Shown one piece after another: positions 4,446 through 61,048 of a DNA stretch of 64,000 bases; positions within the stretch are counted from its first letter, which is position 1, and every line of letters begins with the position of its first letter. The DNA comes from Lignipirellula cremea (lineage in GTDB: Bacteria > Planctomycetota > Planctomycetia > Pirellulales > Pirellulaceae). The stretch covers positions 712,437-776,436 of the forward strand of contig NZ_CP036433.1 of NCBI RefSeq assembly GCF_007751035.1, in the 5' to 3' direction. A model generated the notes under the pieces. That model was not told where the DNA came from and did no database searches. It saw nothing but the letters and a program-made list of their open reading frames with translations. The position numbers were made by a program, and so were the translations under genes.

Positions 4446-5443
4446 TGTACTCTCCCTTTAGTGACTTCCAGGAACACATCTTCCAGACTGGCGGCGTGGC
4501 TGGCGAACTCGGCGATACGAAATCCGCCCAGGACTAGCTCCCGCAGCGTATCTGCTTCCGCCTGGCGATCGGCCGGATGGGTGTAGTTCAACAACTCGCC
4601 GTCGACTCGAATGTTCTCGATCCCATCGCGAGCGGCCAGCCATTCCGCCACGGGCCCTGCTCCGCCCAGCACACGGATACGCACGCCGTTGAGTTTTTTC
4701 TCCCCCTGGCGGACCCGGGCGTGGAGGATTTCGTCGACGGATCCCACCGCCAGCAGCTGGCCCTGCTCGATGATGCCGACGACATCGCAAATTTCCGCCA
4801 GCTCGGTCAGAATGTGCGAACTGACCAGGACCGTTTTGCCGTCGGCGGCGAGCGCCCTGATCATTTCTCGCAGTTCAATGCGGGCCCGTGGATCGAGTCC
4901 CGCGGCCGGCTCGTCGAGAATCAGCACCGCCGGATCGTGGATCATGGCGCGGCCCAGGCAGAGTCGCTGCTTCATCCCTTTGGAGAGCCCACGCGTCGGT
5001 TTCTCGGCCAGCACGTCGAGGCCGGTAAAAGTCAGCACGCGGTCGAGCGCATTCCGACGTTCTGCACCCCGCAGTCCATGCGCCCTGGCGAAAAAGTCGA
5101 GATACTCGAGGCAATCGACGTTGGGATAGGTGCCAAAATAGTCGGGCATGAACCCCAGCCGGCGGCGGACGCGGTCAGGATCGTCGACGACAGAAAACCC
5201 ATCGACCCGCGCATCGCCATGCGTCGGCAGGTCGAGCGTCGCCAGAATTCGCATGCTGGTGGTTTTGCCGGCGCCGTTGGGGCCGATGTAGCCAAACACC
5301 TGGCCCTTTTTGACCGAGAAAGAAATGTCATCGACCGCTCGCGTGCTGCCGAAACGGCGATGCAAACGGCGCAGCTCGATCATCGGATGGGAAGGAACCG
5401 CAGGGGACTGCGACTCGGCCTGGGCTGCCTGGGTAGCGACCAT
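4442..5443 (-). CDS. ABC transporter ATP-binding protein
   Basis: Walker A GPNGAGKTT, ABC signature LSKGMKQRL, Walker B LILDEPAAGLD. Confidence 0.85.
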   Translation of the reverse strand: MVATQAAQAESQSPAVPSHPMIELRRLHRRFGSTRAVDDISFSVKKGQVFGYIGPNGAGKTTSMRILATLDLPTHGDARVDGFSVVDDPDRVRRRLGFMPDYFGTYPNVDCLEYLDFFARAHGLRGAERRNALDRVLTFTGLDVLAEKPTRGLSKGMKQRLCLGRAMIHDPAVLILDEPAAGLDPRARIELREMIRALAADGKTVLVSSHILTELAEICDVVGIIEQGQLLAVGSVDEILHARVRQGEKKLNGVRIRVLGGAGPVAEWLAARDGIENIRVDGELLNYTHPADRQAEADTLRELVLGGFRIAEFASHAASLEDVFLEVTKGRVQ

Positions 5444-32552: not shown

Positions 32553-33120
32553 GATGCTCGTACCTCCGTACAGGTTTTGCCGGTTCCGCAACCCGCGTTC
32601 TGGATCCGGAACGATCGCCTTTCACCGCAGCGAAAGCAGGCGCCCTGCTGCGGAGCAACGAGCGACGAACGGCCTGGATTTTTTCTGGATGCCTGATGTG
32701 ATGTGTGGACGTCGGTGCGTCCTGGTGAAATAAAAAAAGGCCCTCGGGAAAGACACGCCTTCTGTCGGTCGCAAGCGAAGATCACGGAGCGCGACTTGAG
32801 CGGTCACACGACCGCGGCTTCACGCCGGCGTCGGTCCGTCGGGCTGCCGAGCGCACAGGGCGTCGGGGCTGACGGAGGAGGACCGGCGTTGATCCACGGC
32901 CTGGTAAAGGCGGTATCCACGCGCTACAGGGTGTTCTTCACGGCTGCTTCCGCTGATCGGGATTCGTCGTCAAAGGCAGCATGGCCGCCGCCGCATCGCC
33001 GCGGTCGGCTGGCTTCCTTGTCAACGTCTCCCTGCCTGCGGTCGCTGACCGGGCAGTGGGTATCTTTCCGTTGGGCTAATCAGTGATGCACGCTTGCGCG
33101 CGCGACAGGGTGAAAACCTG

Positions 33121-33193
33121 CGGGTGGTGAAGGGTTCGAACCTCCTACATTCAGATTAAATGTCTGATGCTCTGCCAAATGAGCTAACCACGA
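33121..33193 (-). tRNA. tRNA-Lys(UUU)-like, probable pseudogene
   Basis: Manual minus-strand fold. D-arm TAGCTCATTTGGCAGAGCA. Anticodon arm TCAGA-CATTTAA-TCTGA (anticodon UUU, but A at position 33). T-arm GGAGG-TTCGAAC-CCTTC. Acceptor positions 1 and 2 are unpaired (5' TCGTGGT against 3' ACCACCC). Confidence 0.4.
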
Positions 33194-33305
33194 ACGTTTA
33201 TCGCCTTTGTTGTAAACCATGTACGGAACACGCCAGGCTAACTACCGCCGAGGGCGACGAGCCGGCGCGCCGCTGGACCCAGCGACAAACTTCCTTGCTT
33301 GAAAA

Positions 33306-33376
33306 TGACTCGTGCGGGAATCGAACCCGCGCCGCGAGAATGAGGGCCTCGCATCCTGCCGCTAGACGAACGAGCC
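33306..33376 (-). tRNA. tRNA-Glu(CUC)
   Basis: Acceptor GGCTCGT/ACGAGTC. D-arm GTCT..GGAT shared with the Glu(UUC) gene. Anticodon loop CCCTCAT (C33, anticodon CUC). T-arm GCGGG-TTCGATT-CCCGC. Confidence 0.55.
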
Positions 33377-33387
33377 GGAAACTTCAG

Positions 33388-33564
33388 CGGTGATGACGGG
33401 ATTTGAACCCGCACGAACGGATAGGAACTGGGGAAGAATAACTTCGGCTCACAGGAGTAGAACCGCCCGACGCTAGCGCGTTCGGCTCACTATACAAAAA
33501 CCGAAGTTATTTTCCCCTCGTTCCATAGACAATCCGTGATGATGCCAGGTTACATCACATCACC
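33388..33564 (-). tRNA. tRNA-Asp(GUC) interrupted by a 101-bp MITE in the anticodon loop
   Basis: With 33424-33524 and one ATA copy removed, the gene folds as GGTGATG..ACGGA-TTGTCTA-TCCGT..GCGGG-TTCAAAT-CCCGT-CATCACC-G. Perfect 7-bp acceptor, G73 and GUC anticodon are consistent with Asp. Confidence 0.55.
33424..33524. mobile_element. MITE-like 101-bp inverted-repeat element (copy 1) with ATA target-site duplication
   Basis: Terminal inverted repeats GGAACTGGGGAAGAATAACTTCGG / CCGAAGTTATTTTCCCCTCGTTCC. Flanked by ATA on both sides. Related terminal repeats occur at 51681-52071. Confidence 0.6.
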
Positions 33565-33601
33565 GGAGAACACCTTTTAATACCAGGCTTTTCCTCTCAG
33601 G

Positions 33602-33671
33602 CTGCAGGTCTCGGTATCGAACCGAGCGGGCGGGCCGTATGAAAGCCAGCTGGACACCTGTCGCACCTGCA
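33602..33671 (-). tRNA. tRNA-like fragment (acceptor stem + T-arm only), pseudogene
   Basis: Perfect 7-bp acceptor TGCAGGT/ACCTGCA and T-arm CTCGG-TTCGATA-CCGAG. No D-arm or anticodon arm could be folded from the intervening 38 nt. Confidence 0.3.
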
Positions 33672-33680
33672 ACGCTTTAG

Positions 33681-33765
33681 TAACCAGGGGGAGACTTGCA
33701 CTCCCAACTCCTCAGGGGGAACGACGTTCTAAGCGTCGCGCGTCTGCTAATTCCGCCACCTCGCC
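33681..33765 (-). tRNA. tRNA-Leu(UAG)-like class II tRNA, atypical (possible pseudogene)
   Basis: 85 nt. 5' half GGCGAGG-TG-GCGGAATTAGCAGACGC resembles bacterial tRNA-Leu. Anticodon arm CGACG-CTTAGAA-CGTCG. Long variable arm. T-arm GGGAG-TGCAAGT-CTCCC with G at position 55. Acceptor has two G.U pairs and one G.G mismatch. Discriminator A. Confidence 0.45.
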
Positions 33766-33830
33766 ATCCATCAACCTGCTTCTACTGCTTCTCTTGTCCT
33801 GCTTCTCTTCTTCCTGTCTCCTGATACAAG

Positions 33831-33912
33831 TACGCCGGGCAGGAGTTGAACCTGCACATCCCAAAGGCGGCTGCTTTACAGGCAGTTGGGCTCGCCGATG
33901 CCCAGCCGACGT
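33831..33912 (-). tRNA. tRNA-Tyr(GUA)
   Basis: Acceptor ACGTCGG/CCGGCGT. D-arm GGGC-ATCGGCGA-GCCC. Anticodon loop CTGTAAA. 14-nt variable arm. T-arm GCAGG-TTCAACT-CCTGC. Discriminator A. Confidence 0.7.
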
Positions 33913-33932
33913 ATGTTGTTTGCGTTCTTCAA

Positions 33933-34006
33933 TACCCAGAGCAGGGATCGAACCTGCATCCTCTCGGGTTTAAACCGAGTCGCTCTTCCGGTTGGCGCAC
34001 CTGGGC
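33933..34006 (-). tRNA. atypical class-I tRNA with UAA anticodon
   Basis: Acceptor GCCCAGG/TCTGGGT with G.U pairs at both ends. 3-bp D-stem. Anticodon arm CTCGG-TTTAAAC-CCGAG. 5-nt variable loop. T-arm GCAGG-TTCGATC-CCTGC. Discriminator A. A class-I scaffold with a Leu anticodon is noncanonical. Confidence 0.4.
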
Positions 34007-34014
34007 ATGAAAAG

Positions 34015-34086
34015 TAGTCCCGGATGGAATCGAACCATCGTATCCTGGATGTGAACCAGGCGTCGTCGCCGTTGGACCACGGGACT
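34015..34086 (-). tRNA. tRNA-Val(CAC)
   Basis: Perfect acceptor AGTCCCG/CGGGACT. Anticodon arm CCTGG-TTCACAT-CCAGG. T-arm GATGG-TTCGATT-CCATC. Confidence 0.7.
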
Positions 34087-34241
34087 GTTTCTGTTCCTGC
34101 ACTTCTTTCTAGTGCTGCGTCAAGGCAAAGAGTTCGGGTTCTTCCAATTAGCCGTTTTGGCGATAGCCACGGTTAACTAAAAGGAACAGCGGCTCGCGCG
34201 AAAATGGCCAAACCTGAAATGGAAACTTGACGCACCACTAG

Positions 34242-34312
34242 TGGACCTGCCGGGAGTCGCACCCGGATCTCCGGCCTGCGACGCCGGCGTCTTCCTGTTG
34301 GACGATAGGCCC
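34242..34312 (-). tRNA. tRNA-Ala(CGC)-like with G3.U70, atypical T-loop
   Basis: Acceptor GGGCCTA/CAGGTCC carries a G3.U70 wobble, the Ala identity element. Anticodon arm CCGGC-GTCGCAG-GCCGG. T-arm CCGGG-TGCGACT-CCCGG with G at position 55. Short D-loop. Confidence 0.45.
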
Positions 34313-34338
34313 ATTTTTTGAGCGATCTCGCTCAAGGC

Positions 34339-34409
34339 ATGCCCCCAAGGACTTGAACCCTGACAAACTGGGTTGGAACCAGCCGTGCTGCCAATTACAC
34401 CAGGGACAC
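34339..34409 (-). tRNA. tRNA-Trp(CCA)-like, acceptor top unpaired (possible pseudogene)
   Basis: D-arm GTGT-AATTGGCA-GCAC. Anticodon arm GCTGG-TTCCAAC-CCAGT (anticodon CCA). T-arm CAGGG-TTCAAGT-CCTTG. Only 4 of 7 acceptor pairs form (5' GTGTCCC against 3' GGGGGCA). Confidence 0.4.
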
Positions 34410-34425
34410 ACAAAACTTTCCTCAG

Positions 34426-34510
34426 CGGAAGCCGTGAGACTCGAACTCACAAGCGGCTTTCGCCGCCGCCTGTTTTCAAGACAGGGTCCTCATCCGGCCG
34501 GATGGCTTCC
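34426..34510 (-). tRNA. tRNA-Ser(UGA)
   Basis: Perfect acceptor GGAAGCC/GGCTTCC. Anticodon arm CCTGT-CTTGAAA-ACAGG. Long variable arm. T-arm GTGAG-TTCGAGT-CTCAC. Discriminator G. Confidence 0.75.
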
Positions 34511-34525
34511 TTCATGTTCTGCAAG

Positions 34526-34600
34526 CTGCGGGAGTTGGAATCGAACCAACGACCTCCTGGTTCAGAGCCAGGCATCACTACCAACAGCAACTATCCCGCA
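34526..34600 (-). tRNA. tRNA-Gln(CUG)
   Basis: U1-A72 acceptor TGCGGGA/TCCCGCA, typical of bacterial Gln. Anticodon loop CTCTGAA. T-arm GTTGG-TTCGATT-CCAAC. Confidence 0.75.
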
Positions 34601-34649
34601 TTGTTTCTTTTATGACTTCTACCTCAAGTTCTCCTCGCGACCTGTGGAG

Positions 34650-34724
34650 CTGCGGGAGCAGGAATCGAACCTGCGACCTCCTGGTTCAAAGCCAGGCATC
34701 ACTACCAGCAGCGACTGTCCCGCA
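34650..34724 (-). tRNA. tRNA-Gln(UUG)
   Basis: Near-duplicate of the Gln(CUG) gene. Anticodon loop CTTTGAA. T-arm GCAGG-TTCGATT-CCTGC. Confidence 0.75.
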
Positions 34725-34750
34725 TTGGACGATGGCTATATCACTTTGAA

Positions 34751-34822
34751 AGGGACGGGCGGGACTCGAACCCGCGCGAGGACGCTTAACAGACGTCTGC
34801 TCTGCCGCTGAGCTACCGACCC
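34751..34822 (-). tRNA. tRNA-Asn(GUU)
   Basis: D-arm TAGCTC-AGCGGCA-GAGC. Anticodon arm GACGT-CTGTTAA-GCGTC. T-arm GCGGG-TTCGAGT-CCCGC. One T.T mismatch in the acceptor. Confidence 0.65.
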
Positions 34823-34837
34823 GGCATGCCTGTAAAG

Positions 34838-34909
34838 AGTGTTCTGCGGGAGTCGAACCCGCCTCGCCAGGTTGGAAGCCTGGAGCCTTTGCCGCTCGGC
34901 CAAGAACAC
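34838..34909 (-). tRNA. tRNA-Gly(UCC)
   Basis: Perfect acceptor GTGTTCT/AGAACAC. Anticodon arm CCAGG-CTTCCAA-CCTGG. T-arm GCGGG-TTCGACT-CCCGC. Confidence 0.7.
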
Positions 34910-34961
34910 ATTTTTTGTATCTATCAATATCGGCGCCTGCCATTCCATGACACACGTTTAG

Positions 34962-35046
34962 CGGAAGGAGAGGGAGTCGAACCCCCAAGGCTGTGAAGCT
35001 CACCCCGGTTCGAGCGGGGCGCCGTCGCCCATCGGCTGGCCCTTCC
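34962..35046 (-). tRNA. tRNA-Ser(CGA)
   Basis: Acceptor GGAAGGG/TCCTTCC. Anticodon arm CCCCG-CTCGAAC-CGGGG. Long variable arm. T-arm GGGGG-TTCGACT-CCCTC. Discriminator G. Confidence 0.7.
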
Positions 35047-35073
35047 ATACAAAGCAACGCTACTTTCGCGGAG

Positions 35074-51577: not shown

Positions 51578-51680
51578 GCGGAATTCTCATTTCGTCGGAG
51601 GGTGGAAGCGATGGTGCTAGTGTACCGACCACAACCGGCAGAGGAAAACAAACTCTGCGACGACAGGACTCCATGACAAA

Positions 51681-52071
51681 GGAACCGGAGAAAAATAACT
51701 TCGGTGGTTTCCCCAGCCTGGCGGGAATCAGAAGCACGCCATCCACAGGGGCCGTGGCCAAAAATTTCTCACATTCTTCTGGTTCTTTGCGCCTTCGCGC
51801 CTTTGCGTGAGTCCCCATTTCCGCGAGGGAGATTTTTGAATCCGCTCCCTTTTATCTTCCAGCCATTCAAAGACGGTTTGGCGATTCGATCACGAAGTGG
51901 ATCTCACGCAAAGGCGCGAAGGCGCAAAGGAGAGGTCGGCAGAGGACCATCGTGGATGAAGCTGGCCAGGATGCGTCCACTCACATACTTCATGGCGTGA
52001 TCTCAAGCAGGATTGCTATTTTGAAGGTACTTCGTGTTCTACAAAAACCGAAGTTGTTTTTGCTTCGTTCC
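51681..52071. mobile_element. MITE-like 391-bp element (copy 2), terminal repeats related to copy 1, nested 23-bp perfect inverted repeat
   Basis: Terminal repeats GGAACCGGAGAAAAATAACTTCGGT / ACCGAAGTTGTTTTTGCTTCGTTCC. Internal perfect inverted repeat TGCGCCTTCGCGCCTTTGCGTGA (51788-51810) / TCACGCAAAGGCGCGAAGGCGCA (51904-51926). Flanked by AAA. Confidence 0.55.
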
Positions 52072-52107
52072 AAAACGCCGTGAGCATCCTCCTATGGCGT
52101 TTTCGAT

Positions 52108-54907: not shown

Positions 54908-57232
54908 ATGGAACGATCCCGCGTTACTATCGTCCGCCTGGCAGTCATGCTGGTGCTGGGGCAGGCAGCAGCCGGTGCGGTCGAGCCGCAGGGGTCGGTC
55001 GAAAAAGGTCCGGCCTGGACGGCGACCAGGTTTGAGAAGTTCGTGGGGCAGCACTGCCTCGACTGCCACAGTACGGACGATCCGGCCGGTGACGTGGACC
55101 TGAGCGGACTGGCTGCCGAGGGCGGCCTGAATGGACAGCACTGGCAACGCGCGCTGGCGCAGTTAGCAAGCGGACAGATGCCGCCCGACGATGCGGCGCG
55201 ACCCGCGCTGGCGGACCGGGAAGCGGCCATCGCCTGGCTGGCGTCGACTTTGACGCAGAGCGGACAGACGCCGCATTTTGGCGATGGCCCGTTGCCGCAG
55301 GACGGTAACCTGGTCGACCATGAGCGGTTGTTCAGCGGCCTGCATGCGGGTCCGGCCTTCTCGCCGCCGCGATTCTGGCGGCGGAGCGGACCGCAGTACG
55401 ATGCGCTGATGGAACGGCTGTGGGTCATCCCGCGCTTGCGGTATGAAAAAACGCACACGCGGAACGATCCCGACTGGGCCGCCTACAGTTACAGCCAGCC
55501 GTTCGCCTCGCTGGACCCGAGCCACTTCACCAACTATTCCGGCAGCGTGCACGCCGATGAAGCCGCCTTGCGGGCCCTGCTCGATGCGGGCGGGCAGATC
55601 GCCGAACGGCTGACGTCCGACCAGACGGCCTACGCCAAAGAGCTGCAGCCGCCGCATGCGGTCGGTATCCCCACCATTCGTCGCGGCAGTTCGTGGGAGC
55701 GTTTCAAGCAGGAACCGCCGGCCCGACCGGCCGAGTTCGAGCCGTTCGTCCAGCAGGAACCGCAGCCCCACGCGGAGCAGCAACAGGCGGTCGTGCAGCG
55801 GGTGTTCGCCCTGCTGCTGAACCGGCAGCCCACGTCCGAAGAAGCAGATCGCTATGGCGAGTTTCTGCGCCGAGGAATGGAGAAGAACGGCCCGTTGCCG
55901 GCCCTGAAAGGGCTGATCACGGCGGTGATGGTGAGCCCGGAGTTTGTCTTCCGGATGGAAGTCGGCATGAGCCCGCCCGACGAACATGGCCGCCGGAGGT
56001 TATCCCCGTCGGAACTGGCGTATGCGATCGGATACGCCCTGACCGACGCCGGCCCCGACGCCGAAATCTGGGAAGCGGTCGAGTCCGGCCGGCTGCAGAC
56101 GAAAGCCGATGTGGCCCGCCAGGTGCAACGTCTGTTGGCGGACGATCGGATCGAGAAGCAGCGGAAGCTGCGGTTCTTCCAGGAGTTCTTCGGCTACCCC
56201 CAGGCGGTCGATGTCTTCAAAGACCAGGGCGGCTGGCCGCTTGAGGTGCAGTACCTGGTCCGCGACGCCGACATGCTGGTGGAGCACGTGCTGCGGCAGG
56301 ATAAAGATGTGTTTGCCCAGCTGCTCACGACCGATCGGTACTTTGTGGCTTACCCCTACATTCCTGACCCGGAACTGTTCGAGGCTATCATCGCGTCAAC
56401 GCGGGAAGAGACCCAGGAAAGCATGGCCCGCCAGAAACAACGCGGCCGTTCTGTCGGGCCTGATCCGCAAGGCAAATACAACCGGGCCTGGGCCCTCACG
56501 CAAGGCCGGGAGCTGATTCCGCGGACCGTGCATAACGATCGCGGCTCGGCCGAAATGTCGTACATCCGCATCTATGGGATCGACGGGAATACGTTCTCCT
56601 GGACGAAGAACCAGCCGATCGCCGTGCCTGGTCGCCGGGCCGGCATCCTGACGCATCCAGCCTGGCTGGCGGCCCATTCGACCGCGTTTGATAACAGCGT
56701 GGTCGGCCGCGGCCATTGGATTCGTGAGAACCTGCTGGCGGGCAAGATCCCCAACGTGCCGATTGATGTCGAAGCCCAGTTGCCGGACGAACCGAACAGC
56801 ACGCTCCGCGAACGGATGCGGGCGACCCGGGCCGAGCGCTGCGTTCGCTGCCATCGCCAGATGGATCCGCTTGGTTTCCCGTTCGAGATCTACGACCACT
56901 GGGGTCAGTTCCGCGAACAGGAAATGGTCGGTCAGAAGAAGAACATGCCCAAAGAGATCAACCCGCAAGGAGCCATTCTGGCCAGCGGCGATCCGGCGCT
57001 TGATGGCCCGGTCGACGATGCGATTGACCTGGTGCAGCGGCTGGCCCAGTCGCCGCGGGTGCGGCAGTCGATGATCCGGCATGCGTTCCGTTACTGGATG
57101 GGGCGGAATGAAATGCTCAGCGACGCCCCGACATTGCTGGCGGCCGATCGGGCATATCTGGATAGCGGCGGCAGCTTCAACGCCGTGATTGTTTCGCTGC
57201 TGACGTCGGACTCGTTCCTGTATCGCAAGTGA
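54908..57232 (+). CDS. DUF1592/DUF1595/DUF1587/DUF1585/DUF1588-type protein with a cytochrome-like CxxCH
   Basis: Signal peptide, CLDCHSTDDPAGDVDLSGL. C-terminal ..RHAFRYWMGRNEMLSDAPTLLAADRAYLDSGGSFNAVIVSLLTSDSFLYRK. Followed by a DUF1552 gene, the typical Planctomycete pair. Confidence 0.7.
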   Translation: MERSRVTIVRLAVMLVLGQAAAGAVEPQGSVEKGPAWTATRFEKFVGQHCLDCHSTDDPAGDVDLSGLAAEGGLNGQHWQRALAQLASGQMPPDDAARPALADREAAIAWLASTLTQSGQTPHFGDGPLPQDGNLVDHERLFSGLHAGPAFSPPRFWRRSGPQYDALMERLWVIPRLRYEKTHTRNDPDWAAYSYSQPFASLDPSHFTNYSGSVHADEAALRALLDAGGQIAERLTSDQTAYAKELQPPHAVGIPTIRRGSSWERFKQEPPARPAEFEPFVQQEPQPHAEQQQAVVQRVFALLLNRQPTSEEADRYGEFLRRGMEKNGPLPALKGLITAVMVSPEFVFRMEVGMSPPDEHGRRRLSPSELAYAIGYALTDAGPDAEIWEAVESGRLQTKADVARQVQRLLADDRIEKQRKLRFFQEFFGYPQAVDVFKDQGGWPLEVQYLVRDADMLVEHVLRQDKDVFAQLLTTDRYFVAYPYIPDPELFEAIIASTREETQESMARQKQRGRSVGPDPQGKYNRAWALTQGRELIPRTVHNDRGSAEMSYIRIYGIDGNTFSWTKNQPIAVPGRRAGILTHPAWLAAHSTAFDNSVVGRGHWIRENLLAGKIPNVPIDVEAQLPDEPNSTLRERMRATRAERCVRCHRQMDPLGFPFEIYDHWGQFREQEMVGQKKNMPKEINPQGAILASGDPALDGPVDDAIDLVQRLAQSPRVRQSMIRHAFRYWMGRNEMLSDAPTLLAADRAYLDSGGSFNAVIVSLLTSDSFLYRK

Positions 57233-57296: not shown

Positions 57297-58721
57297 ATGC
57301 CATTCCATCGCAGGCAACTTCTGAAAGGCGCCGCTGCGGCGTTCGGTTCGCTGCAGCTGCCGCCCTGGCTGGGATCGGTCCAGGCGGCAGTGAAAGCGCG
57401 GGCCGGGGGCCAGTCGCAGCAGCCCATGCGGTTTGTGTTTTGTATCCGCTCGAACGGGCTGTGGGCCGAAATGCTGCAGCCGCCCGCCCTGCTGAATCGC
57501 TTGCCGTTTCCGGTCGCCTACGACGAGAAAGGGCGACTCGTCCCCGGAGAGCATGGCAGTGGAAGACGCCTCGTCACGCCGGCGGCCGACCTGGCTTTGG
57601 GAAAAGACCTGCAGCTGAACGAAGTGATGCAGCCGCTCACGCCGTTTCGCCAGAAGCTCTCGATCCTGCAGGGGATCAACTCGGGTTTCTCCGTCTACCA
57701 CAAAGCCGGCTACCAGACGCTGGGAGCCTTTGCTGGCAAGAAGCGGGACTCCGATGAAGTCGCCGGACCGACGGTCGACTCCATGCTGGCCCGGGCGTTC
57801 CCGGGACCGGCGCCGCATGTTTGCCTGGGGCACGATCCCAAGTCGCCGTCGGGCGTGGCGTATGTGCCAACTTCGGCCGAGGCCCGCGACAAGCCGATCG
57901 CTTTCTTCACGCATCCGAAACGGGCGTACAAAGAACTGTTCGGCGTGGTCGGCGAAGGGTCCGCCCGCAGCCATTATGAAACGCAGTCCGACATTCTCGA
58001 TTTCTTCGCCGCCGACGCCCAGCGTTTGCGGGCCCGCACGGCGGGTCCGGAACGGGAGCAACTGGACCGCTATTTGAATGCCTTTGAGTCGTTGCGGCAG
58101 AGTCGGCAGGAGGTCGAAGCGATCCGCGACCAGTTGCGGCGGTACGCGCCCAAGCCGCCGGCTGAGATCGAGGCCGGCGCCACCATGAAGGTCGGCGCCG
58201 GGAATACCGAGATCGCCATCGCCTCCCTGCTGAGCGGGCTGACGAATGTCGTTACGCTGCGGTTTGATCTGCTCAGCTCCAGCAGTTATGAGGGAGTCGG
58301 TTCGTTGCACGCCGGCATCGGACACGGCCAGGTGAAGGATATGGTCGGCGCCCGGCGCCAGGTGTGCCGCTTTCACTTTGAGCAGATCGCCCGCATGGCG
58401 ACCGCCCTGGAAGCGATCCCCGAAGGGGACGGCACGATGCTCGATAACACGGTGTTTGTGTATACGAGCGACAACGGCGAAACGCATCACTCGGCCGGCG
58501 TGAATTACCCGATCCTGCTGCTGGGCGATCTGGGCGGCCGCCTGGCCACGGGCCGGTACTTCGCCCCGGGGAACGAGCAGACCGACCGCAGCCAGCCCGG
58601 CTATACTCGTCTGGGAGATGTCTGGGCGACCCTGCTGGCCGCCGCTGGACAACCGTACCAGGACTTCGGCATACCGATCAACGGCTTGCCGCATCGACCC
58701 ATTGAATCCCTGCTGGCTTGA
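57297..58721 (+). CDS. DUF1552 protein (Tat signal)
   Basis: HRRQLLKGAAAAFGSL twin-arginine signal and DUF1552-wide similarity. Confidence 0.75.
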   Translation: MPFHRRQLLKGAAAAFGSLQLPPWLGSVQAAVKARAGGQSQQPMRFVFCIRSNGLWAEMLQPPALLNRLPFPVAYDEKGRLVPGEHGSGRRLVTPAADLALGKDLQLNEVMQPLTPFRQKLSILQGINSGFSVYHKAGYQTLGAFAGKKRDSDEVAGPTVDSMLARAFPGPAPHVCLGHDPKSPSGVAYVPTSAEARDKPIAFFTHPKRAYKELFGVVGEGSARSHYETQSDILDFFAADAQRLRARTAGPEREQLDRYLNAFESLRQSRQEVEAIRDQLRRYAPKPPAEIEAGATMKVGAGNTEIAIASLLSGLTNVVTLRFDLLSSSSYEGVGSLHAGIGHGQVKDMVGARRQVCRFHFEQIARMATALEAIPEGDGTMLDNTVFVYTSDNGETHHSAGVNYPILLLGDLGGRLATGRYFAPGNEQTDRSQPGYTRLGDVWATLLAAAGQPYQDFGIPINGLPHRPIESLLA

Positions 58722-61048
58722 GCCCTATGAACGTCCTCTCCCCTGCCCTTCGCTTGCCGGGCCGAGTCGCGCAGGTCCGTCGCGCATGCCTGGCGTGCGG
58801 CGTTTGGCTGGCGTACGTCTTCTGCCTGGGAGCGTCCGTCCCGACGCTCGCCGGTGAGCCAGTGGACGAAGCGTCGGCCCGGCAACTGCGCGTCGGGTTC
58901 GACCAGACGGCCGGGCCATTCCTGCTGCAGCATTGCGTGGATTGCCATGGAGCAGACGATCCGGCAGGCGGCGTCTCCCTGCATCCGCTGGATCCGACCC
59001 GGCTGGGCGGAGACGATGCGGCCCTGTGGCAGAAAGTGCTCCAGGTGCTGAAGTTTGGCCAGATGCCGCCGCCAGGCGAACCTCAGCCGGAGCGGGCCGA
59101 CCTGGACCGCATGACCAGCTGGATCCAGGCCGAACTGGCCGCCGCGGGGCAGGAATCGGATGTTGATCACAAGCTGCTGCAGCCGGCTTACGCCAATTTG
59201 CTGCAGCATGAAAAACTGTTCGACGGTTCGATCACGGGCCCTGCGTTCAGCCGGCCGCGACTGTGGCGGATTCATCCGGAAGCGTACGACCAGCTGCTGG
59301 TCGGATTCGGCCGGGAGCTGACCCTGGGCGGGCCGCTGAGCAAGCCGTTTACTGTCGGCGAAGGGAAAGGACTCGCCGCCAATTACGCCGCGCTCATGCA
59401 GGCGGACTCAGCCACGCTGGGACAGCTGATGCTCAACTGCCGGCAGATCGCCCAGCTGCAGACGACCGGCTTTGTCCGGCAGGAGCAGGATCGCAAAACG
59501 AAGGAGATGGTCGAGAAGATTCACCGCCGCGCGCCGGATTCGTTCGCCGCCATTCTCGACAGCCCGGACGCACCGACCGCCGAGCAGATCGCCGCTGCGG
59601 TGGCGGAAGAATTCCAGCTGGTGCTGCTCCGCTCCCCCAGCAAAGAAGAGGCGGCCGACTTCACCGATCTGCTGCAGCGGGCGATCGCCGTTGGCGGCAA
59701 AGCGGGCGGCCTGCGCACCCTGGCGATGGCGGTGCTGATGCGGCCGGAAGCGATCTACCGGATGGAAGTCGGCCTGGGCGATACGACCGCTGACGGCCGG
59801 CGGATGCTCTCCCCTTACGAGCTGGCCCACGCGCTGGCGTACGCCTTGACCGATCTGCCGCCGGACCAGGTGCTGCTGGGTCCCCGCAAAAACAATCGGC
59901 CCGGACCGCCGTCGCTGCTGGACCTGGCCCGCGACGGCCAGCTGCAGTCGCGCGATGACGTCCTGCGTGTGGCGACGCAGATGTGGGATAACGAAGAGCT
60001 GCAGAAGCCGCGAGTCCTCCGCTTCTTTCAAGAGTTCTTCGGCTACGCCCACGCCGAAACGGTCTTCAAAGGAGACCGCGCCGGCAAGGAGTTCCACACG
60101 AAGATTCTGGTCAAAGACGCCGACGACCTGGTGCTGCACCTGGTGCGGCAGGATCGGGAAGTCCTCCGCGAGCTGCTCACGACCGATCGCTTCTTTGTGC
60201 AGTGGCCCGGCTCCCAGGCGGAATACGACCGGAAGATCCAGTACATCACGGAGCGGATCAAACCGGGGAACAAGGCCGACCGCAACTACAAGTATTTTGT
60301 CGCCCGGGTGGAACAAGGCCTGCGTCCCATGCCGCAGGCGAACCCCACGTGGCGATCGACCGTGCGGTTCTATAACCTGCACGAGAACACCTGGGACTAC
60401 CCCCTGGAGCAACCGTTCCCGATGCCGCCCGGCGAACGCGTGGGGCTGCTCACGCATCCCGCCTGGCTGGCGGCCTGGTCCGGCAATTTTGAGAATGACC
60501 CGATCCGTCGGGGGAAGTGGATTCGCGAGAACCTGCTGGCCGGAGCGGCGCCCGAGGCGCCGATCACGGTCGACGCCAGCGTGCCGGAAGACCCGCACAA
60601 AACGCTCCGCCAAAGACTGACCGTCACCCGGCAGGAATACTGCTGGAAGTGCCATCAGAACATGGAGCCGCTGGCCCTGCCGCTGGAAGCGTACGACGAC
60701 TTTGGCCAGTTCCGCACGGTCGAAGGACTGGGCGACACCCGCGCCCTGACGAAGCCGAAATCGACGGCTCCGCTGGAGACACATGGCCAGATTATCCACT
60801 CCGGCGATCCTGCCATCGACGGCCCCGTGCGTGATGTGCACGAGCTGATGCAGCGTCTGGCCAGTTCGTCGCGGGTGCGTCAAAGCTTTGTGCGGCACGC
60901 CTTCCGCTATTGGCTGGGACGGAACGAAATGCTGAGCGATTCGCCCACGCTGATCGCCGCCGACCAGGCGTATGTCGAACAGGACGGCAGCTTCAAGGCG
61001 CTCGTCCTGTCGCTGCTGACGTCCGACTCTTTTTTGTATCGCAAGTAA
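58718..61048 (+). CDS. DUF1592-type protein, paralog of 54908-57232
   Basis: Similar along its length to the 54908-57232 protein, including the conserved C-terminus ..SLLTSDSFLYRK. ATGA overlap with the DUF1552 gene. Confidence 0.7.
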   Translation: MSPMNVLSPALRLPGRVAQVRRACLACGVWLAYVFCLGASVPTLAGEPVDEASARQLRVGFDQTAGPFLLQHCVDCHGADDPAGGVSLHPLDPTRLGGDDAALWQKVLQVLKFGQMPPPGEPQPERADLDRMTSWIQAELAAAGQESDVDHKLLQPAYANLLQHEKLFDGSITGPAFSRPRLWRIHPEAYDQLLVGFGRELTLGGPLSKPFTVGEGKGLAANYAALMQADSATLGQLMLNCRQIAQLQTTGFVRQEQDRKTKEMVEKIHRRAPDSFAAILDSPDAPTAEQIAAAVAEEFQLVLLRSPSKEEAADFTDLLQRAIAVGGKAGGLRTLAMAVLMRPEAIYRMEVGLGDTTADGRRMLSPYELAHALAYALTDLPPDQVLLGPRKNNRPGPPSLLDLARDGQLQSRDDVLRVATQMWDNEELQKPRVLRFFQEFFGYAHAETVFKGDRAGKEFHTKILVKDADDLVLHLVRQDREVLRELLTTDRFFVQWPGSQAEYDRKIQYITERIKPGNKADRNYKYFVARVEQGLRPMPQANPTWRSTVRFYNLHENTWDYPLEQPFPMPPGERVGLLTHPAWLAAWSGNFENDPIRRGKWIRENLLAGAAPEAPITVDASVPEDPHKTLRQRLTVTRQEYCWKCHQNMEPLALPLEAYDDFGQFRTVEGLGDTRALTKPKSTAPLETHGQIIHSGDPAIDGPVRDVHELMQRLASSSRVRQSFVRHAFRYWLGRNEMLSDSPTLIAADQAYVEQDGSFKALVLSLLTSDSFLYRK

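Follow-up and report, generated by a model that had tools for sequence, protein, structure and literature searches.

An ISAzo13-Family MITE in the Anticodon Loop of a tRNA-Asp(GUC) Gene of a Long tRNA Array in Lignipirellula cremea

Bacterial MITEs derived from insertion sequences (ISs) include the Correia elements of Neisseria, Nezha of the cyanobacteria, and the Rickettsia palindromic elements. The anticodon loop of tRNA genes can also be interrupted by introns. That is, group I introns, whose length is usually above 200 nt, occur at this location in cyanobacterial and proteobacterial tRNAs, and group I self-splicing is, to our knowledge, the only way in which tRNA introns are spliced in bacteria. 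The bulge-helix-bulge (BHB) motif of archaeal and eukaryal tRNA introns consists of 3-nt bulges around a 4-bp helix; we know of no tRNA splicing endonuclease in bacteria. The ISs of the ISAzo13 family are 1.25–2.2 kb long and have inverted ends and a duplication of 0–4 bp (ISfinder).

L-arrays are accessory tRNA operons of considerable length, spread by horizontal transfer and including pseudogenes (Santamaria-Gomez et al. 2021, PMC8421152). Linkage to genes for homing endonucleases and to rtcB is common, and in Anabaena rtcB is co-regulated with the arrays (PMC8421152). The arrays stay silent until they are induced, in Anabaena by translation inhibitors (PMC8421152). The L. cremea genome is reported to have 144 tRNA genes and 27 transposable elements (PMC7717058).

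The window, that is, the whole stretch of L. cremea DNA that was analysed, is 64 kb in length. The features that concern us, with the evidence for each, are as follows.

33120..37642, minus strand: long tRNA array (L-array type) of 25 intact tRNAs and the interrupted tRNA-Asp (ARAGORN, Rfam, synteny)
33388..33423, minus strand: 3′ half of tRNA-Asp(GUC) (sequence; ARAGORN intron mode; alignment to metagenome contig L015)
33424..33524, strand not applicable: 101-bp ISAzo13-family MITE (repeats, pattern statistics, ends common to other elements)
33525..33564, minus strand: 5′ half of tRNA-Asp(GUC) (sequence; ARAGORN intron mode; orthologue match)
35063..36644, minus strand: unrelated IS of 1582 bp (inverted repeats, Pfam, synteny break relative to L015)
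51681..52071, strand not applicable: second MITE of the same family, 391 bp, intergenic (repeats, shared ends)

The L. cremea array resembles L-arrays (PMC8421152) and the tRNA array units of Tran et al. (2015, PMC4758250) in that 20 or more tRNA genes are densely packed. It packs 26 tRNA genes into 4.5 kb, including an IS of 1.6 kb, where the L-array definition asks for at least 20 genes and at least two per kb. The order of the genes is conserved as well: the array is collinear with L015 by blastn, and the same tRNA neighbourhoods recur at nine further metagenome loci (L016–L024). The array also shares with L-arrays a gene order conserved across distant genomes, the presence of atypical tRNAs and of pseudogenes, and a high frequency of insertions and deletions. 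The array contains no Arg, Cys, or His tRNA and no working tRNA-Asp. The genes for tRNA-Glu(CTC) and tRNA-Lys(UUU) lie downstream of the interrupted tRNA-Asp, and the 101-bp element probably lies inside one operon with them. ARAGORN called 24 of the intact genes and Rfam one, at 34242-34312. This last, a tRNA-like sequence on the minus strand scoring 41 bits with Rfam, is not called by ARAGORN at its default setting and is called as tRNA-Ala(CGC) at a relaxed threshold; a conserved counterpart at L015:4420-4505 is likewise uncalled.

A slipin (SPFH) gene is located 800 bp from the tRNA-Asp locus. The L015 contig encodes an SPFH protein that is 74% identical, and there the SPFH gene adjoins the collinear array, which has 44 tRNAs. 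In the window array, Glu(CTC) and Lys(TTT) are the last genes (33120-33193, compared with L015:5262-9545). L015 continues beyond Glu(CTC): before the SPFH gene come some 20 further tRNAs (Leu, Met, Val, Thr, Ala, Ser, Arg, His, Trp, Cys) and a gene for an HNH endonuclease. The distal part of the array has been lost or moved in L. cremea. After the array island, L015:12674-16979 carries genes for an ARPP-1-like protein, an Apyc1-like (anti-Pycsar) metallo-beta-lactamase, and RtcB, a gene order consistent with the linkage of rtcB to L-arrays reported elsewhere. In the relative, then, both an HNH endonuclease and rtcB are linked to the array, as in L-arrays. Among the genes called on L015, including those for the ARPP-1-like, Apyc1-like, and RtcB proteins, only the SPFH gene has a homologue in the window. 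Compared with the 44-gene array of L015, the L. cremea array is shorter, lacks the HNH-containing distal part, and has received two different mobile-element insertions.

The larger of these insertions is the IS at 35063-36644. Its 35-nt inverted ends are 80% complementary, and it encodes a 439-aa transposase with a DDE_Tnp_1/DUF772 match (35255-36574). The IS sits between tRNA-Asn(GTT) and tRNA-Ser(CGA), which are 5 nt apart in L015, and synteny breaks exactly there; no clear target duplication is apparent at the ends as delimited. A phage origin of the region was considered and rejected, as megablast found no match in the phage collection and both the tRNA-Asp pattern and the element ends were absent from viral contigs.

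The split tRNA-Asp(GUC) gene extends over 33388-33564 on the minus strand. Its 5′ side, at 33525-33564, reads GGTGATG TG ATGT AACCTGGCA TCAT C ACGGA TTGTC TAT and comprises the 5′ strand of the acceptor stem, the D-arm, the 5′ strand of the anticodon stem, and the anticodon loop through TAT. The 101-nt element follows. The gene then resumes, at 33423-33388, as TAT CCGT TCGT GCGGG TTCAAAT CCCGT CATCACC G, supplying TAT, the 3′ strand of the anticodon stem, the variable loop, the T-arm, the 3′ strand of the acceptor stem, and the discriminator G. The repeated trinucleotide, ATA on the forward strand and TAT on the tRNA strand, is the target-site duplication (33421-33423 and 33525-33527). When the element and one TAT are deleted, a 73-nt sequence results that ARAGORN calls tRNA-Asp(gtc), with an anticodon stem-loop containing ACGGAUUGUCUAUCCGU. 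Within 33388-33564, no tRNA was called by default ARAGORN or by Rfam; with introns allowed, ARAGORN reports a tRNA-Asp whose anticodon loop is interrupted by 104 nt. Standard tRNA gene finders thus miss the interrupted gene, and an intron-tolerant search recovers it. Two features of the restored tRNA deserve mention. Position 37 of its loop, TTGTCTA, is U, which is unusual, as this position is almost always a purine in tRNAs. The D-stem has a U13:U22 mismatch, leaving 3 bp plus the mismatch.

The element starts with GGAACTGGGGAAGAATAACTTCGG and ends with CCGAAGTTATTTTCCCCTCGTTCC. Its terminal inverted repeats, 33424-33447 and 33501-33524, are 24 nt long, lie 53 nt apart, and are complementary at 20 of 24 positions (83%). 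With up to three mismatches allowed, the 24-mer end occurs twice in the window, compared with 0.00 occurrences expected from shuffles. The GC content of the element is 52%, that of the window 63%, and 101 bp leave no room for a transposase gene.

The original prediction had proposed a 101-bp element with 24-nt terminal inverted repeats, flanked on both sides by ATA, in the only tRNA-Asp gene of the array, and had held that its removal restores a 73-nt tRNA-Asp. These points stand. The arms are confirmed, if imperfect; the flanking ATA copies can be read in the sequence; ARAGORN agrees with the reconstruction, which is exact; and none of the other 25 tRNAs of the array is an Asp tRNA (0/25).

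Orthologues of the tRNA-Asp gene that are free of the element were found in ten related arrays, namely L015 and the nine metagenome loci L016–L024. The latter came from a scan of the metagenomes with TTGTCTANNNNNTCGTGCGGGTTCAAATCCCG, and all nine lie within tRNA arrays. All ten orthologues have the loop TTGTCTA, a single TAT, and the sequence TTGTCTATCC. In L015, positions 5102-5175 read GGTGGCGTGATGTAACCAGGCAGCATGATGGATTGTCTATCCATTCGTGCGGGTTCAAATCCCGTCGTCACCGC, the same tRNA uninterrupted, with one TAT, directly upstream of tRNA-Glu(CTC). By blastn, window 33565-33525 aligns to L015 5101-5141 and window 33424-33306 to L015 5138-5254; that is, the two tRNA halves abut in L015, with an overlap of 4 nt. 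The 3′ half together with the downstream tRNA-Glu(CTC) is 86% identical to L015:5138-5254, and the 5′ half is 85–98% identical to L015:5101-5141 and L019:1217-1257. Junctions of the filled site had 0 matches in 241 million metagenome records. In none of the relatives was the same 101 nt found at the same site with group I features, which favours the transposon reading. The U37 of the loop UUGUCUA is present in all 11 arrays that carry this tRNA-Asp(GUC) paralogue. L015 has, in addition, a second Asp(GTC) gene, at 4832-4907, with a canonical CUGUCAC loop and without a counterpart in the window array; in the ARAGORN list, L023 has a second Asp(GTC) as well.

In a cloverleaf alignment of the eight distinct sequences, 99.4% of the cells are paired, and compensatory changes are seen in three pairs. 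The only unpaired cell among the 167 is the U13:U22 of the interrupted copy; in the other sequences G22 is invariant. Judged from this alignment, the tRNA-Asp paralogue is a genuine gene under constraint, and its U37 is conserved. The U13:U22 mismatch may be a weak hint that constraint relaxed after the insertion. This substitution is the sole difference (1/73 bases) between the restored tRNA and its nearest orthologue, that of L019, the halves being otherwise intact. The near-intact halves mean either that the insertion is recent or that the halves are still under selection. The nearest array, that of L019, shares only 79–85% identity with the window in the adjoining array sequence, too little for dating the insertion.

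The element belongs to a family with further copies. The second MITE in the window, the intergenic 391-bp copy at 51681-52071, has the ends GGAACCGGAGAAAAATAACTTCGG and CCGAAGTTGTTTTTGCTTCGTTCC, with terminal arms complementary at 18 of 24 positions, and is flanked by an AAA duplication (51678-51680 and 52072-52074). Its internal sequence and its flanks differ from those of the tRNA-Asp insert. A perfect 27-nt inverted repeat occurs inside the copy (51785-51811 and 51903-51929, 91 nt apart), and longer copies in L002, L005, and L012 likewise have internal palindromes. The palindrome of the 391-bp copy may stem from a nested element, or it may be part of how elements of the family are built.

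One genome per species was scanned with the degenerate end GGAACNRRRSRARAAYAACTTCGG, giving 13 loci; nine of the 13 are in Planctomycetota MAGs, six MAGs in all. Five complete short elements, 99–264 bp in length, could be delimited in four Planctomycetota MAGs, with duplications of TAA or TTA. At L007, a 1298-bp element with the same ends and with TAA/TTA flanks encodes a 374-aa protein that matches PF07592 (DDE_Tnp_ISAZ013) at E = 6e-94. Three more full-length elements of 1295–1302 bp, with the same ends and PF07592 transposases, were found through transposase homologues, and each has a perfect 3-bp duplication (TTA for L025, TTA for L027, ATA for L028). The full-length relatives thus have the attributes of ISAzo13 elements, that is, a PF07592 transposase, a length of about 1.3 kb, and 3-bp duplications. 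Because full-length elements with the same ends encode PF07592 transposases, the 101-bp insert is a non-autonomous derivative, or MITE, of an ISAzo13-family IS. No ISAzo13 transposase was matched by tblastn within the 64-kb window, and no L. cremea protein is among the best 120 homologues listed for the transposase or for the array-linked HNH endonuclease; L. cremea presumably carries a resident full-length ISAzo13 copy.

The comparison with described elements can be summarized as follows. Like bacterial MITEs, the 101-bp element is short and non-coding, with terminal inverted repeats and a short A/T-rich duplication; it has several relatives of varying length whose ends are common to a transposase-encoding IS; and such elements form a hairpin when transcribed and can land inside genes. 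In contrast to the named bacterial MITEs, the parent family is ISAzo13 (PF07592), and the 3-bp duplications are TAA, TTA, ATA, and AAA. The full-length ISAzo13 relatives (‘Rhodopirellula transposase DDE domain’, PF07592) have one transposase gene each and ends that begin with GG; the window element has the same 24-nt ends and keeps only these, without the transposase. Small size, inverted repeats, a duplication with its empty site, further copies, and an autonomous relative have all been found for the 101-bp element. The original assignment to the MITEs is thereby borne out: the inverted repeats, the duplication, the empty sites, the further copies, and the full-length ISAzo13-family elements all agree with it. 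The family ends GGAACnnnnnAAAAATAACTTCGG (GGAACNNNNNAANAAYAACTTCGG) and a 3-bp A/T duplication make such elements recognisable in Planctomycetota. Descriptions of ISAzo13-derived MITEs, and of a bacterial MITE in a tRNA anticodon loop, were absent from the literature searched, the limits of which leave the novelty of both unproven.

The duplications in L. cremea are of the form AWA (ATA and AAA), and most copies elsewhere have TAA or TTA (L002, L010–L013, L025, L027). Outside L. cremea, ATA was seen with only one full-length element, L028. The two forms may mean that lineages differ in their choice of target, or may be due to chance. A preference of the family for tRNA genes was considered and rejected, as none of the nine Planctomycetota element loci, a small sample, contains a tRNA. 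No targeting of tRNAs is needed to account for the present insertion: in a genome of 63% GC, an A/T trinucleotide is simply what the anticodon loop offers.

We propose the following course of events, which we regard as very probable. An ISAzo13-derived MITE transposed into the TAT on the 3′ side of the anticodon loop in an atypical, conserved tRNA-Asp(GUC) paralogue, duplicating this trinucleotide. About 104 nt, predicted to form a long hairpin, now separate the anticodon from position 38. We know of no bacterial machinery for the removal of such an insert; therefore, the interrupted copy would most likely yield no usable tRNA. The loss would be tolerated, the array being presumably accessory and many other tRNA genes being present in the genome. 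In short, a MITE of the ISAzo13 family has inserted in a tRNA-Asp gene of this array, and this probably redundant gene has most likely been inactivated.

The redundancy of the gene is argued from what the array lacks and from the tRNA count of the genome. Since Arg, Cys, and His tRNAs are missing from the array, the cell must draw on tRNA genes at other loci. Given the 144 tRNA genes reported for the genome, the sole Asp gene of the array need not be the sole tRNA-Asp of the cell, and another tRNA-Asp gene presumably lies elsewhere in the L. cremea genome, among some 118 tRNA genes located outside the array. The cost of inactivation should therefore be small. That the array tolerates mobile-element hits is indicated by the separate IS at 35063-36644, which also inserted there. 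The original prediction regarded either outcome, inactivation or removal of the insert, as unusual. This view does not hold for a presumably accessory array without Arg, Cys, or His tRNAs in a genome reported to contain 144 tRNA genes; a transposon has struck a probably redundant gene, which is nothing out of the ordinary. Its value is as a clean bacterial case of a MITE in a tRNA anticodon loop, with both the empty site and the parent IS family identified. For the evolution of L-arrays, it is one more case of accessory arrays gathering mobile-element hits and pseudogenes. Much greater importance would attach to the insertion only if the insert were removed at the RNA level.

The alternatives differ in what becomes of the insert after transcription. 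One is that the tRNA is dead and the insertion has been co-opted, serving, for example, in the processing or stability of the array transcript or giving rise to a small RNA or to tRNA halves. In favour of such a role are the strong hairpin predicted for the element and its position inside a probable single operon, upstream of tRNA-Glu(CTC) and tRNA-Lys(UUU). However, no promoter-like or terminator-like signal is present in or beside the element, the insertion is conserved in no other array, and nothing sets it apart from a neutral one. We consider co-option unlikely.

We give still less credence to the proposal that a cellular endonuclease removes the hairpin from the array transcript and that the halves are religated, for example by RtcB, into a functional tRNA-Asp. 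In that event, a MITE would recently have become a bacterial tRNA intron whose removal depends on protein. In the predicted fold of the native transcript (−80.5 kcal/mol, z = −7.6), the acceptor, D, and T arms are indeed preserved, and the element protrudes from the anticodon stem as a long hairpin of its own; the insertion is in the anticodon loop, beside the canonical intron position; the tRNA halves are almost undecayed; and the syntenic array of L015 has rtcB linked to it. As in anticodon-loop tRNA introns, whether of the group I or the archaeal and eukaryal BHB type, the position is right and the tRNA body can fold around the insert. In contrast to these introns, the insert lacks a group I core and a BHB, is not conserved among the orthologues, and bears the hallmarks of a transposon. 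The BHB geometry is lacking from the predicted fold, in which the junctions of both the MFE and the centroid structures are an asymmetric internal loop. Cleavage by RNase III would leave 5′-P and 3′-OH ends, which are not substrates of RtcB. The window has no rtcB homologue, and the filled site is found only in L. cremea among the metagenome scans and the ten orthologues. Moreover, those other members of the family that were checked are not in tRNAs; the hairpin is therefore no more than the inverted repeats of the element. The original suggestion of a self-folding insertion that is processed out finds no backing in an Rfam match, a BHB, or a recurrence in metagenomes.

A last possibility, self-splicing of the insert as a group I intron or as some other small ribozyme, has only the location in the anticodon loop of a bacterial tRNA in its favour; it can be dismissed as far as sequence analysis goes and is almost certainly wrong. 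A group I intron would be much longer than 101 nt, and an Rfam scan of 33300-33680 at a permissive threshold (E up to 10) matched no intron, ribozyme, or other known RNA family in the insert. Terminal inverted repeats, a duplicated target, and relatives with a transposase gene also speak against it, as does the intergenic position of a second copy of the element. With group I self-splicing impossible for this insert, insertional inactivation becomes the default reading.

Other repeats in the window were seen outside the array. Between 13900 and 18650, there are four to five tandem paralogous genes with repeated segments (families D1, D6, and D9), and three of these paralogues have a conserved 67-nt upstream block ending in GTGCGATCGnnnGATCGCACCTTTT (D8). 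Two further paralogous genes of about 775 aa, 54908-57232 and 58718-61048, lie roughly 3.8 kb apart and contain repeated segments; both have a cytochrome-c-like CxxCH motif near the N terminus.
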